Shown: in pieces, positions 15,384 through 59,680 of the stretch
Numbering within the stretch: the first letter of the stretch is position 1
Layout of the letters: every line of letters begins with the position of its first letter
Source: a virus
Taxonomy: Duplodnaviria > Caudoviricetes
Virus record (IMG/VR): IMGVR_UViG_3300031994_002623
Location: 28,681-92,680 of that record
DNA: 64,000 bases
Strand: one strand, 5' to 3'
Notes under the pieces: model-generated
Told to the model about the DNA's origin: nothing
Database searches by the model: none
The model's input: the letters and a program-made list of their open reading frames with translations, nothing else
Program-made: the position numbers and the translations under genes

Positions 15384-17291
15384 ATGGGAAAAATTATTGG
15401 AATTGACCTTGGAACATCAAACTCATGTGTTTCGGTGTATGAAGGAAACGAGCCAACTGTTATTGTGAACAGTGAAGGTAAGCGCACAACCCCATCAGTA
15501 GTGGGTTTTGCTGAAAATGGTGAACGTAAGATTGGTGAGCCTGCTAAGAGACAGGCTATTACCAACCCTAAGAACACCGTTTACTCAATCAAGCGTTTCA
15601 TGGGTGAGACATATGAGCAGTCTAAGAAGGAAGCTGAGCGTGTTCCTTTCGAGGTTGTGAATGAGGGTGGTTACCCACGTGTGAATATTGATGGACGTAA
15701 ATTCACTCCACAGGAAATTTCAGCAATGATTCTCCAGAAGATGAAGAAGACTGCTGAGGACTACCTTGGACATGAGGTTACAGAAGCTGTTATTACTGTT
15801 CCTGCTTACTTCTCTGACTCACAACGTCAAGCAACTAAGGAGGCTGGACAGATTGCTGGTCTGGACGTTAAGCGTATTGTTAACGAGCCTACAGCTGCTG
15901 CTCTTGCCTATGGTATTGACAAGGCTGACAAGGACATGAAGATTGCCGTATTCGACGCTGGTGGTGGTACGTTCGATATCTCCATCCTGGAGTTCGGTGG
16001 TGGTGTCTTTGAGGTACTTTCTACCAATGGTGATACTCACCTGGGTGGTGATGACTTCGACCAGGTAATCATCGACTGGTTGGTACAGGAGTTCAAGAAC
16101 GATGAGGGTGCTGACCTTACGACTGACCCAATGGCTATGCAGCGTCTTAAGGAAGCTGCTGAGAAGGCTAAGTGCGAGCTTTCAGTAACCAATAGCACTG
16201 AGATTAACCTGCCTTACATCATGCCTGTGAACGGAACTCCTAAGCACATGGTGAAGGAAATTACTCGTGCTAAGTTTGAGCAGTTGTCAGATAGTTTGCT
16301 TAAGCGCCATATCGAGCCTTGTAAGAAGGCACTGGAGGACGCTAAGCTGACAGCAGCGGATATTGATGAGGTTATCCTTGTCGGTGGTTCTACACGTATT
16401 CCTGCATTGCAGCAGATTGTAAAGGATGTATTTGGACGTGAGCCATCCAAGGCTGTAAACCCAGACGAGGCAGTATCTATTGGTGCTTGCGTGCAAGGTG
16501 CTGTCCTTAACAAGGAAGGAGGAGTGGGAGATATCGTACTGCTTGACGTTACTCCATTGACACTGGGTATTGAGACAATGGGTGGTGTGATGACCAAGCT
16601 GATTGATGCTAACACCACTATTCCTTGCAAGAAGAGCGAGGTGTTCTCTACCGCAGCTGACAATCAGACTGAGGTAACTATCCATGTGCTCCAGGGTGAG
16701 CGTCCTATGGCTTCTCAGAATAAGAGTATCGGTAAGTTCAACCTTACTGGTATTATGCCAGCTCGTCGTGGTATTCCTCAGATTGAGGTATCATTTGACA
16801 TCGATGCCAACGGCATCCTCAAGGTTACTGCCAAGGATAAAGCTACTGGCAAGGAGCAGGCTATCCGTATTGAGGCTTCATCTGGACTTAGTAAGGAGGA
16901 GATTGAGCGCATGAAAGCTGAGGCTGAGAAGAATGCAGAGGCTGACAAGAAGGAACGTGAGGTTGCTGATGCAATCAACAAGGGTGACCAGCTTATTTTC
17001 GCCCAGGAGAAGCTTATTGAGGAGCAGAAGGACAACATTACCTCTGACGAGAAAACGAAGCTTGACGGGCTTGTAAATAGCCTTAGAGACGCTGTAGCTG
17101 CCAAGGATGTGAACAAGATTAATGAGATTGAGAAGTCCATCAACGATACATGGAACGAGGTATCTCAGAGAGTCTATGCTTCACAGCAAACGCAGCAGAC
17201 TTCACAGCAGGCATCTGACGAGGCAGCAGCATCAGAACCAGCCCAGGAGCAGCCTAATGTGCAGGATGCAGAGTTTGAGGAAGTTTCATAA
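15384..17291 (+). CDS. dnaK: Chaperone DnaK (Hsp70)
   Basis: [45 protein letters not shown]. Confidence 0.98.
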
Positions 17292-26214: not shown

Positions 26215-27498
26215 ATGAATCCATTACTTAAAGAATTGAAAGAGAGAGGACTTATTGCAAGTCTCTCTGGCAACCTCGAAGAGTTGCTCAGTAAGCCAAC
26301 TGTATTTTATGTAGGTACTGACCCCACAGCGGACAGCCTACACCTTGGACATTTGCTGGCATTTACAACTGCCAAGCTTCTTCAGTCCTATGGCCATAAG
26401 CCTATCGTTCTGTTGGGAGGTGCTACGGCTTTCATTGGAGACCCATCGTTTAAGTCAGAAGAGCGCAAGCTTCTGAGTGCTGAAGTAGTCGAGCATAACA
26501 TCGAGGGTATCCGCAAACAGGTGAGTAGACTGCTTCACTTTGATAACAACGACCCAAAGGCTGCTATTCTGGTTAATAACTACGATTGGATGAAGAATTT
26601 CTCTTTCATCGATTTCGCACGTGAGGTTGGTAAGTGTATCACCGTTAACTACATGATGGCAAAGGACTCTGTAAAGAAGCGTCTTGAGCGTGAGGGTAGT
26701 GGTATGTCATTCACTGAGTTTACCTATCAGTTGTTACAGGGTTACGATTTCGTCGAGTTGTACCAGAACTATGACTGTAAGCTACAGATTGGTGGTAGTG
26801 ACCAGTATGGAAACGGTACTACTGGTATTGAACTGATACACAAGATGCTTGGAAAGGACGATGCTTGTATGTTGACATGGCCTTTGGTAACTAAGGCTGA
26901 TGGCACAAAGTTCGGTAAGTCAGAGAAGGGTAATATCTGGCTTGACCCAGAGAAGACGAGTCCATACGAGTTCTTCCAGTTCTGGATGAATCAGTCTGAC
27001 GAAGACTCAGAGCGTTTCATAAAGCTGTTCACCCTCATCCCTCTTGAAAACATCAAGACTATTATTGAGCAGCATCGTGAGAACCCAAGCAAACGTTACT
27101 TGCAGACTGTACTTGCTGAATACATGACTGAAATGATTCATGGTCATGATGCAGTGCTTGGTGTGAAACAGGCTACTGCATTCCTGTTTGGCGGTATTGG
27201 CCTTGACGAAATGGATATTAACGGATGGAAGTTCGTTGAGTCAGAGGTTGCTACTGTTGAGATACCAAAGGAACAGCTTGCCAGTGGTGTGACTGTTATC
27301 GACCTTGCAACCATGCATGACAAAGTGCCTTCAAAGTCCGAGGCTCGTAAGCTTATCAAGGCTAACGGTTTCTCCATCAACAGGGAGAAGGTTACCGACG
27401 AGAAGGTAGTTGTTGATGCTGGTAGTCTAATCAACGGCAAGTATCTACTTCTCCAAAAGGGTAAGAAAGATTATACGCTAATTGTGGCTAAATCCTAA
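26215..27498 (+). CDS. tyrS: Tyrosyl-tRNA synthetase
   Basis: DPTADSLHLGH, QIGGSDQ, KFGKS, C-terminal S4 domain. Confidence 0.97.
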   Translation: MNPLLKELKERGLIASLSGNLEELLSKPTVFYVGTDPTADSLHLGHLLAFTTAKLLQSYGHKPIVLLGGATAFIGDPSFKSEERKLLSAEVVEHNIEGIRKQVSRLLHFDNNDPKAAILVNNYDWMKNFSFIDFAREVGKCITVNYMMAKDSVKKRLEREGSGMSFTEFTYQLLQGYDFVELYQNYDCKLQIGGSDQYGNGTTGIELIHKMLGKDDACMLTWPLVTKADGTKFGKSEKGNIWLDPEKTSPYEFFQFWMNQSDEDSERFIKLFTLIPLENIKTIIEQHRENPSKRYLQTVLAEYMTEMIHGHDAVLGVKQATAFLFGGIGLDEMDINGWKFVESEVATVEIPKEQLASGVTVIDLATMHDKVPSKSEARKLIKANGFSINREKVTDEKVVVDAGSLINGKYLLLQKGKKDYTLIVAKS

Positions 27499-30936: not shown

Positions 30937-32301
30937 ATGTTAGAATTAAAAGGACAGTATTGTAAGGACTTAAAGGTCTTTACCGACAACGTTGAGGAGA
31001 CTGCGTTGTCAACGATATATCGCATTGCTGATTGTATTGCGTTCAAGGACAGGAAAATACGAATCATGCCAGACTGTCACGATGGTAAGGGCATTGTAGT
31101 TGGCTTCTCATGCCCTGTTAATATAGATAAAGACCACGTGAACCCAGAGCACGTTGGATGTGATATCGGGTGTACTATCTCTGCTACCTTCTTCGATAAG
31201 CCTATTATCGACGATAATATGAAGGAGTTCGAGCACAAGATTCGCAAGGAGATACCTTTCGGTTTCTCAATTAACGACAAGTCTAAGATTGAATGGAAGC
31301 GTATCACCAAGGCTGTTAACGCAGCTATGGACAGGTTATGCTCATTGTATCCTCAGTTCTCAGAATATGCTATTCGTTTTGGAAACGAAATGGATTTGGA
31401 GAAGTGGTGTACCAGGGTACGTATTGACTATGGTGACTTCATTAAGGCTATCGGCTCTGTAGGTGGTGGTAACCATTTCCTTGAGTATGATGTCAACGAG
31501 GAGTTGGGTAAGTATTGCGTATGCGTACACTGCGGCTCACGTAAGCTTGGTTTGGCTGTATTCAATTACTGGAACAAGATTGCCAAGAGCATGACTGTTT
31601 CCAGGGAAGAAATGAAGATGCTTGAGAATAACGTCAAGGCTAAGAACACCGATAAATCAAAGATGAAGGAAGAGCTAAAGGCTGCAAGGGAGGAATATCT
31701 CTCTCACAGGATTCCAGGTTACCTCTCTGGAGAACACCTTATGGGATACTTAGTAGATGTACTCATTGCCCAGACCTATGCACAGCTGAATCACGAGGTA
31801 ATTAACGAGCAGGTCGTTGAGATATATAGGAAGATGTCTGGAGGTGGAAAACCAGTTGACTTCATCAGTACTACGCACAACTATATTGATTACGACTTCA
31901 AGGCGTTGATGGGTGCTCCAAACATGATGATTCGTAAGGGTTCTATCCGTGCTTACGAGGGTGAGAGGGTGATTATTCCATTCAACATGAGGGATGGTAT
32001 CTCTATCTGCACAGGTAAGTCAAATCCAGACTGGAACTTTACAGCACCACACGGTGCTGGACGCATTATGTCACGTTCAAAGGCTTTCGAGAACCTGGAT
32101 GCTGAGGAGTTTAAGAAACAGATGGCTGATGCTGGCATCTATACCACCACTGCCGATGAGAAGACTCTTGATGAAGCACCAGATGCTTATAAGCCAATGG
32201 CAGAAATTGTAAAGCTTATTGAGCCAACTGTTAACATCGAGTTCTTCATGAAGCCAAAGATGAATATCAAGGCACAGGAAGATAAGATTAAGTTCTTTTA
32301 A
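30937..32301 (+). CDS. rtcB: RtcB RNA 2',3'-cyclic phosphate/3'-P:5'-OH ligase
   Basis: MPDCH, VGCDIGC, GGGNHFLE, HCGSR, HNY, RKG, HGAGR..SR, DEAP.AYK. Confidence 0.96.
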   Translation: MLELKGQYCKDLKVFTDNVEETALSTIYRIADCIAFKDRKIRIMPDCHDGKGIVVGFSCPVNIDKDHVNPEHVGCDIGCTISATFFDKPIIDDNMKEFEHKIRKEIPFGFSINDKSKIEWKRITKAVNAAMDRLCSLYPQFSEYAIRFGNEMDLEKWCTRVRIDYGDFIKAIGSVGGGNHFLEYDVNEELGKYCVCVHCGSRKLGLAVFNYWNKIAKSMTVSREEMKMLENNVKAKNTDKSKMKEELKAAREEYLSHRIPGYLSGEHLMGYLVDVLIAQTYAQLNHEVINEQVVEIYRKMSGGGKPVDFISTTHNYIDYDFKALMGAPNMMIRKGSIRAYEGERVIIPFNMRDGISICTGKSNPDWNFTAPHGAGRIMSRSKAFENLDAEEFKKQMADAGIYTTTADEKTLDEAPDAYKPMAEIVKLIEPTVNIEFFMKPKMNIKAQEDKIKFF

Positions 32302-43889: not shown

Positions 43890-43960
43890 GCGGGTATAGC
43901 ACAACGGCAGTGCATGAGATTTCCAATCTTAGGATGAGGGTTCGATTCCCTTTACCCGCT
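43890..43960 (+). tRNA. tRNA-Gly(TCC)
   Basis: TGAGA-TTTCCAA-TCTTA. Confidence 0.88.
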
Positions 43961-43966
43961 CAACGT

Positions 43967-44120: not shown

Positions 44121-44193
44121 GCGGTTATAGCTCAGAAGGGAGAGCATTTGTCTTCCAGACAAAGGGTCGGAGTCTCGAAATCTCCTAACCGCT
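44121..44193 (+). tRNA. tRNA-Gly(TCC) with an atypical T-loop
   Basis: TTTGT-CTTCCAG-ACAAA. Confidence 0.75.
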
Positions 44194-44197
44194 CAAA

Positions 44198-44486
44198 TAG
44201 ACACACGCTGGAAAAGTTGGCTTGGAAGCAGCCATCTTCTAAGGAGTGGGCAAAAAGTTCCCTGTGAGCCTTAAGCAACCAGGAGTCAGAAAGTAGCCTG
44301 GGAGATATTGACTGTGAGGGGGTAATCAACAACATGACATTGTAAACTCAATGGTCTGCCGCCTACATTTGGGTAAAAGTCCACCCTAAGAGAGTAGGTG
44401 CTGGCAGTATGGCGGGGTTATGAACCCAGTTTTCGGTAGGACACACGGGACTCCTTTGGCGTAACAGCACATCTGGCTAATGTCTA
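44198..44486 (+). ncRNA. ncRNA containing a 23S rRNA H43/H44 (uL11-binding) mimic split by a ~200-nt insertion
   Basis: GTTGGCTTGGAAGCAGCCATC (44216) and GCGTAACAGC (44459), closed by GCTGGA/TCTGGC. Confidence 0.7.
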
Positions 44487-44512: not shown

Positions 44513-44725
44513 ATGGAACTGAAATGTATGCGATGTGGACATGACCTCATTATTGGGGGCAATTTCATGCTAAGTGATATTTACGGAGACGAGGTAGAAA
44601 CGGAAGAAGACGATGCAATGGTTACAAATGCATCATGCCCTTACTGTGGTGCTTCATACGAGCTGTATGACACGCCAGAATCTGAAAAAGAATACTATCC
44701 ATACTGGAATCATATCGAAGTATAA
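44513..44725 (+). CDS. Small zinc-ribbon protein
   Basis: CMRC...CPYC. Confidence 0.6.
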   Translation: MELKCMRCGHDLIIGGNFMLSDIYGDEVETEEDDAMVTNASCPYCGASYELYDTPESEKEYYPYWNHIEV

Positions 44726-59284: not shown

Positions 59285-59656
59285 GGGCTTGAAACGGAAT
59301 AGACAGCTATACATTTGGTAGGAGACAAGCAGTGGGCATACACTAGAAATAGCGAAAAAATATAAATGGCGAGATAGATTTCTCTCCTGCTTACGAGTAC
59401 GCTGTAGCAGCTTAAAGTGAGCCGAGAGACCAGGCTCTTAGGAACAGAACATCCTGGTAACTTGTTTCTTGGTGTCATGAAACCAAGTGGTGGCTATGAC
59501 CGATTGACATCCAGTCAATCCCCCAATGTTTTCCTCGTTTTCTCAAAATGAGGTGGTCCCAAAGACGGTGGCGCAAGCCATTGCACATTTTGGAAAGCTT
59601 GTATAATCTCTTATGGGATGGTAGTTTGGACCGCAGTTCGACTCTGCGCAAGTCCA
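59285..59656 (+). ncRNA. ssrA: tmRNA; tag (A)GEIDFSPAYEYAVAA*
   Basis: GGGCTTG/CAAGTCC-A acceptor with G3:U; T-loop; tag ORF 59368-59415. Confidence 0.9.
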
Positions 59657-59680
59657 CGTAAGAATCTGATAATCAGATAG

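Follow-up and report, generated by a model that had tools for sequence, protein, structure and literature searches.

We describe a 289-nt non-coding RNA gene in a large uncultured phage (window positions 44198-44486, + strand; the window is the whole 64,000-nt stretch of DNA analyzed, taken from an IMG/VR virus record of 92.7 kb), the two ends of which rebuild the GTPase-associated center (GAC; about Escherichia coli 1050-1109) of 23S rRNA and close on themselves, while a 207-nt structured insert and a UUUG linker are placed between U1090 and G1091 of H44. Bases of the mimic are numbered as in E. coli 23S rRNA throughout. The GAC of bacterial 23S rRNA, consisting of the top of H42, H43, and H44 (1051-1108), is the 58-nt domain that binds uL11 and thiostrepton and that translational GTPases contact. 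The element belongs to a phage-specific family that is under purifying selection and tied to tRNA arrays, and we favor, with somewhat better than even confidence, the view that it is a stable trans-acting GAC mimic with host uL11 as its most likely direct partner, the RNA serving as a decoy or sponge.

When 461 nt were searched against Rfam, positions 44214-44260 matched model positions 1098-1143 of the bacterial LSU rRNA (LSU_rRNA_bacteria, RF02541) at 20.3 bits (E = 3e-4), i.e., below the gathering score of 50, and no family was found at its gathering score. The 21-mer from G1059 to C1079 (44216-44236) is identical to two real 23S genes at 20 of 21 positions. No similarity to the rest of 23S rRNA was found in the window element, which is flanked by a tRNA and a phage ORF. 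The strings quoted in the original prediction of GAC mimicry are all present at their positions, and the mimicry itself is borne out by the LSU match together with the identity in H43.

The RNA opens and ends with an outer 6-bp stem, TAGACA/TGTCTA (44198-44203/44481-44486), which was seen in this window only and is absent from the related locus L131. Inside it lies the closing stem GCTGGA/TCTGGC (44207-44212/44472-44477), equivalent to 1050-1055 at the top of H42 and to 1104-1109; the helix closes at 1055:1104 next to a non-canonical 1056·1103, and in the window a compensated A1055-U1104 replaces G-C and is followed by A1056·A1103. The H43 copy (1057-1081; 44214-44238) carries the hairpin with the conserved 9-nt loop (U1065...A1073, with G1071 and C1072), position 1067 (44224) being G rather than A. 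It leads into the junction CUAAG-GAGU (44239-44247), in which the lone pair C1082-G1086 encloses the UAA turn and is followed by G1087-U1090, with A1088 free for U1060. The lineage-specific insert (44248-44454) then exits H44 between U1090 and G1091, is made up of a 5' subdomain (44248-44336) and a conserved 3' subdomain (44337-44454), and starts, as it does family-wide, with a helix directly after U1090 (G44248-C44454, G44249-C44453, and G44250-U44452). It is followed by the family-specific UUUG linker (44455-44458) and by the H44 apical hairpin GC-GUAACA-GC (1091-1100; 44459-44468; GCGTAACAGC, the hairpin letters also being GCGUAACAGC), which has a GUAAUA-type hexaloop with A1095 at 44463. 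The hairpin is succeeded by ACAU, A1101, C1102, and A1103 running to 44471. The minimum free energy calculated for the full-length RNA does not surpass that of shuffled sequences (z = +0.45), so that support for the structure comes from covariation rather than from energy.

Compared with the GAC of 23S rRNA, the mimic family has the same secondary structure and a near-identical sequence at conserved positions, and the same pairs covary. G1055-C1104 and G1056·A1103 are retained in the family, as are the H43 loop UURRRRGCA, the 1082:1086 pair with its UAA, and the GUARNA hexaloop with A1095. However, the mimic is a separate small phage gene outside the ribosome with its own variable closing stem, and it has an extra helix and the UUUG linker at 1090/1091. 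Its position 1101 is A, which is able to pair with U1090, and H44 can thereby stay intact and gain a branch. In addition, positions 1067, 1096, and 1097 are relaxed in the mimic, 1067 being G in the window lineage. The stem below G1055-C1104 has no conserved sequence in the family, which means that the mimic lacks the uL10 site of H42; the suggested uL10-bL12 stalk site is thus not supported.

Relatives were collected from viral contigs, giving at least 143 unique elements, of which 99 non-redundant ones with unrelated inserts were kept. Exact matches to the H43 21-mer were found in 103 viral contigs; about 100 are stand-alone elements of one build (stem, H43, UAAdGAGU, variable insert, UUUGGCGUARNAGCACAC, stem), and since only L075 and L088 among the 103 are real 23S rRNA, contamination by rRNA was rejected. 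A scan with the 3' 18-mer returned at least 120 stretches, at least 93 of them at new loci, and an H43-like hairpin lies upstream in all but six of the new loci listed, five of the six ending at the locus edge. The window element has all the features that define the family, i.e., the covarying stem, H43, GAGU, an insert after U1090, UUUG, and H44 with A1101, and it likewise comes from a large phage and sits in an array of tRNA genes that run in its own direction. Additional pattern matches in the 92.7-kb record, considered as second copies, are coding DNA without H43.

Conservation was assessed by scoring each half of the element in a set picked by the other half alone. G1059, U1060, G1063, C1064, C1072, A1073, G1074, and C1075 were kept in 47/47 elements and G1071 in 46/47. 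In the set chosen by H43, G1091-A1095 and A1098-C1102 were each kept in at least 51 of 52 (A1095 in 51/52), and the linker read U (52/52), U (52/52), U (50/52), and G (47/52), the last base being A in 5/52. Partners in tertiary contacts of the GAC, which we take from crystal structures of the 58-nt L11-RNA to be U1060/A1088, G1071/G1091-C1100, and C1072/C1092-G1099, are essentially invariant, and U1061, which is known for its tolerance of change, varies freely. Position 1096 is A in 36 and G in 15 elements, 1097 can be any base, and 1067 is A in 42, G in 3, and C in 2 (A = 89%); in the Rfam consensus, 1067 and 1096 are both a conserved A.

When covariation in the 99 relatives was tested against 1000 column shuffles, every proposed helix (1057:1081, 1058:1080, 1082:1086, the closing stem, and the first three insert pairs) exceeded all of them. 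The 1058:1080 pair is UA in 31, AU in 26, GC in 23, and CG in 5 elements, 100% canonical compared to at most 60% in shuffles, and 1082:1086 is UA in 45, CG in 23, and AU in 9, followed by GAGU (1087-1090) in 88/88. Within the closing stem (1047-1055:1104-1112), eight to nine pairs scored above all shuffles, with 1055:1104 being GC in 90 and AU in 5 elements, and 1056·1103 being G·A in 60 and A·A in 31. This covariation rules out chance or a pseudogene. Together with the compensated A1055-U1104 of the window, it also confirms that the two halves pair across the insert and that the element is, as first proposed, a stand-alone, self-closed mimic of H42 (top), H43, and H44. GAGU is kept even in gamma-proteobacterial phages, whereas the 23S rRNA of L075 and L088 reads GAAA, which argues for one spreading family rather than repeated capture. 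At ten loci (L162, L188, L135, L143, L161, L164, L182, L187, L200, and L113) a different segment takes the place of UCnnUAAAGAGU, which otherwise follows GCCA (1077); this suggests a sub-class with a second insertion point or a remodeled junction.

Eleven metagenome relatives share the lineage of the window, and all nine that have intact GAC loops carry G1067. The window insert is 96% identical in L131, and in L130b its 3' subdomain reaches 92% identity; despite the near-identical insert, the closing stem of L131 has been rewritten by several compensatory changes. Loops of the 3' subdomain are nearly invariant in the 11 relatives while the flanks diverge, and three of its helices, including CCUAC/GUAGG and two GGG/CCC hairpin pairs, show compensatory changes (RNAalifold, which mispaired the H43 region of the lineage, was used for insert helices only). 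The 7-bp pairing AAGGAGT/ACTCCTT (44241-44247/44450-44456), thought at first to close the insert, is indeed present, with one compensatory change in L209, but it is specific to this lineage, the insert helix of the family starting after U1090 instead. This 7-bp helix would compete with the GAC junction contacts G1087-C1102 and U1060-A1088.

A 409-kb phage encodes a syntenic orthologue of the window element (L130b; L130 4735-4942, - strand, = L204; also L207) with the same zinc-ribbon ORF downstream. In this orthologue the H43 loop is cut to 7 nt and H44 reads CCUUGAAAGG, while the scaffold and the 3' subdomain are kept, and at a distance of about 650 nt there is a second mimic, which is intact and has another insert (L130 3775-4074). 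Since the GAC loops were lost and the insert kept, the insert appears to have a function of its own and the GAC surface to be dispensable there, though the genome retains one intact GAC copy in its second mimic. The G1067 lineage, the conserved 3' half of the insert, the orthologue lacking GAC loops, and a Y-RNA-like tRNA mimic upstream are new observations for this window.

No stem-closed hairpin of the sarcin-ricin type (AGUA-C-GNRA-G-GA) was found in the window insert, the best 14-mer having five mismatches, nor were any rRNA-like parts, and the proposed recruitment of GTPases by the insert was therefore not upheld. A DUF805b match in the Rfam search (E = 0.3) was taken as chance. Stem-closed hairpins of this type do occur in the long inserts of L076, L023, and L141 (AGUACGAAAGGAAC, AGUACGGGAGGAAA, and GGUACGAGAGGAAG), although in only 3-4 of the 99 inserts of the family. 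In a relative phage genome, L202 (G032:3000-3700, minus strand) contains a repeated structured element of about four tandem units of about 100 nt, each with ACCAGAGGAGAAC...GAUGUAGACAAAUGGGCA and hairpins.

The record is estimated to be only 37% complete at 92.7 kb, which points to a large phage. The + strand of the window carries over 37 tRNA genes as well as a tmRNA, and beside the tRNA array are encoded Hsp70/DnaK (15384-17291), tyrosyl-tRNA synthetase (26215-27498), RtcB RNA ligase (30937-32301), and the tmRNA itself (59285-59657; tag GEIDFSPAYEYAVAA). TelA and a BACON-domain protein are also encoded, the latter hinting at a Bacteroidota host. The mimic directly follows a tRNA-Gly, as had been noted: a tRNA-Gly(UCC) without encoded CCA (44121-44193, + strand; Rfam tRNA, 52.2 bits) ends 4 nt upstream. 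ARAGORN made no call for this tRNA, the T arm of which is unusual (CUCGAAA loop and two mismatched pairs); it is the second tRNA-Gly(UCC), a canonical one being present at 43890-43961. A scan for promoters and terminators gave nothing above shuffles, and ATAGACACA, checked as a recurring signal, was not enriched.

Between the two tRNA-Gly genes lies a match to the Y-RNA-like family YrlA (RF02553; 43993-44117, + strand; 40.2 bits vs. a gathering score of 69, E = 1e-7), with a tRNA-like domain in which the T arm, an acceptor-like stem, and the D arm follow each other in permuted order. The Ro-binding stem was not matched in this module, the record yielded no TROVE/Ro60 gene, and a PDB search with a DUF2828 protein was without result. 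The order tRNA, YrlA-like module, tRNA, mimic recurs in L212. On the other side, a 70-aa zinc-ribbon ORF (CxxC...CxxC; 44513-44725, + strand) begins 27 nt 3' of the mimic; homologues are located near the mimics in L130, L131, L054, and L007, loci that are all of the G1067 type, and the ORF recurs in five related loci only. It matched no Pfam or PHROG family, and its Atlas clusters are viral only.

Across the family, a tRNA lies no more than 2 kb away in 64/99 cases, and all 317 such tRNAs are on the same strand, with 0 on the opposite one; in 39/99 a tRNA abuts within 30 nt. Homologues with variable inserts in phage tRNA arrays, which the original prediction had proposed to look for, are thus plentiful. 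Co-orientation and abutment argue for co-transcription with the tRNAs and release by tRNA-processing enzymes. No neighbor protein is conserved, the commonest cluster occurring in 8/143 loci, and features downstream of the mimics are heterogeneous and often tRNAs. No phage uL11 gene was found in the 50 mimic-bearing virus records, 26 of which are at least 90% complete. With no common neighbor and no phage uL11, a family-wide protein partner is more likely to be a host protein. RtcB is encoded in 10 of the 50 records, so that a link to the mimic is not general.

The 3' 18-mer gave 88 matches in 185,579 species genomes, about half of which represent genuine elements, located for the most part on MAG contigs; the other half were discarded as chance 18-mers in coding DNA. 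Cultured carriers include Aeromonas 4_4572, Pseudomonas pf16, Milchi, Astolliot, UNO-G1W1, Ralstonia RSP15, Paenibacillus Pd_22F, Cronobacter GAP32, Pectobacterium CBB, Serratia BF, several Erwinia phages, Xanthomonas XacN1 and XbC2, Vibrio 2.275.O, and Acinetobacter ME3. In none of them is the mimic annotated as RNA; the locus is blank or a "hypothetical protein." In GAP32 (JN882285.1, 289488-289778) and its kin (CBB, BF, the Erwinia pEa_SNUABM phages, and Kaldavass), such a "hypothetical protein" overlaps the mimic and is probably a mis-annotation. The host side has also encountered the element, as a type I-F-like CRISPR spacer (AUUUGGCGUAGCAGCACACCACCGAUGGUUUU) in L226 (Thiothrix fructosivorans, ~5941) matches a mimic 3' half and closing strand, which indicates that a host has sampled the mimic locus of a phage.

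In the mechanism we propose, the mimic is probably transcribed together with the tRNA array and would be excised by tRNA-processing enzymes, with 3' processing of tRNA-Gly presumably creating its 5' end. The two ends would then fold into a free copy of the GAC (closing stem, H43, 1082-1086 turn, and H44), from the H44 of which the lineage-specific structured domain would branch. Off the ribosome, such a mimic would present a surface for uL11, for factors, and for GAC-directed ligands, and it may bind the C-terminal domain (CTD) of host uL11 as a decoy or sponge. Host uL11 fits best because the partner has to be present across the many phyla that these phages infect and does not come from the phage, and the GAC fold is the common denominator of the family. 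The nucleotides building the uL11-binding fold are retained in the window mimic, for which uL11 binding is plausible from the sequence, and the relaxation of 1067 and 1096 suggests selection on the fold and on uL11 more than on GTPase contacts. Damping of the stringent response, as originally proposed, is at this stage a guess from sequence. Against uL11 stands the retention of A1095, since binding of the uL11-CTD should not need this base; another ligand, in place of uL11 or in addition to it, is hinted at. Nor is it known to be possible to remove uL11 from ribosomes already present in the course of a single infection cycle. A broader formulation, which we rate at somewhat less than even, is that large phages of many bacterial phyla encode an off-ribosome GAC replica that captures either the uL11 of the host or enzymes and factors directed at the GAC, a few of them adding a hairpin of the sarcin-ricin type.

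Among the alternatives, the best survivor, though unlikely, is that the mimic is a decoy for weapons aimed at the GAC (Tre23-like ADP-ribosyltransferases, nucleases, methyltransferases, or thiopeptides), sparing the ribosomes. Present in abundance, the mimic would absorb the toxin, as phage tRNAs do in the case of anticodon nucleases. A1095 is kept in nearly all elements while 1096 and 1097 vary, and the combination of RtcB, tyrosyl-tRNA synthetase, tmRNA, and the tRNAs in the window phage represents an investment in RNA repair and translation back-up. In XacN1, moreover, the mimic adjoins a 2'-5' RNA ligase gene, and the few inserts with a sarcin-ricin-type hairpin would display another toxin target. 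However, RtcB is restricted to a fifth of the carrier records, and phages of many phyla carry the family, a distribution easier to reconcile with a universal partner than with a sporadic toxin. We also know of no anti-phage defense directed at the GAC, which counts against this explanation. On the favorable side, Tre23 ADP-ribosylates H44 within 1095-1098 and blocks the GTPase of EF-G (PMC8661411).

Less probable still is an off-ribosome dock that titrates or redirects EF-G, EF-Tu, IF2, RF3, RelA-type GTPases, or release factors. A1067 and A1095, the two bases that contact factors (1067 also contacting thiostrepton), are mostly retained (89% and 98%, respectively), and the long inserts of L076, L023, and L141 contribute a sarcin-ricin-like (SRL) hairpin. 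Munishkin and Wool reportedly observed in 1997 that isolated GAC and SRL oligonucleotides bind EF-G. Yet the window lineage has G1067 throughout and no SRL-like element, positions 1067, 1096, and 1097 are under less constraint than their rRNA counterparts, and the uL10-bL12 site that recruits factors is absent.

We consider it similarly improbable that the GAC fold mainly serves as a stable scaffold shielded by protein, much like a tRNA scaffold, with the insert as the active part. This would account for the 92-96% conservation of the 3' subdomain with compensatory pairs between differing flanks, for its survival in L130b/L207 without GAC loops, and for the GAP32 jumbo-phage clade, in which the whole element including the clade's own insert is 81-90% conserved. 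What the family shares, however, is the GAC and not the insert: the 99 unrelated inserts have no common motif, and the conserved halves can be as close as 22 nt, leaving almost no insert in some members.

A dead remnant of host 23S rRNA, an intron-split piece of rRNA, or a cis leader of the downstream gene is very improbable: the insert follows U and the linker ends in G, as in group I introns, and the zinc-ribbon ORF lies just downstream, but the covariation and conservation across 99 elements, the lack of any group I (Intron_gpI) or other intron match with E below 10, the short distance between the halves in some members, the replacement of the linker G by A, the variable downstream features, and the presence of the GAC domain only all speak against it. 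An r-protein leader was rejected as well, with no r-protein gene nearby and uL11 absent from the 50 carriers.

Returning to the trans-acting GAC mimic, it can be set beside several known systems. Leaders of r-protein mRNAs (the L10 leader RF00557 and the L1, S8, and L20 sites) also mimic an rRNA site off the ribosome, but they are cis-regulators before cellular r-protein genes and usually loose mimics, whereas the phage mimic is near-exact, is located in tRNA arrays without an r-protein gene, and has no Rfam leader match. With phage tRNA arrays, tmRNA, and ToxI-like pseudo-antitoxin RNA it shares the niche and strand of tRNAs and tmRNA, likely processing from the same transcript, and a possible protective or decoy role, but it copies rRNA and not tRNA. 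GOLLD, ROOL, and YrlA Y-RNA-like tRNA mimics are likewise structured phage ncRNAs beside tRNA genes, and in the window the YrlA-like module is found about 80 nt upstream of the mimic; the mimic is nonetheless smaller, has a copy of rRNA as its core, and matches none of them in sequence or model. We found no description of a viral mimic of an rRNA domain in the literature or in Rfam 15, and we know of no virus encoding a stand-alone copy of a functional rRNA center. This very large phage RNA family is thus apparently undescribed.

If the mimic binds uL11 or other GAC ligands, it would give phages an RNA-based means of reshaping or protecting the factor-binding site of the host ribosome, with altered RelA activation, altered thiopeptide action, and protection from toxins as possible consequences. 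Annotation can be corrected already, in that the "hypothetical protein" of GAP32-like phages is probably the RNA element. Cultured carriers on tractable hosts (Cronobacter, Pectobacterium, Serratia, Pseudomonas putida, and Aeromonas) make the proposal directly testable. Should off-ribosome capture prove true, the family would represent a new class of RNA-based takeover or counter-defense aimed at the translation machinery, to which the lineage-specific inserts would add functions.
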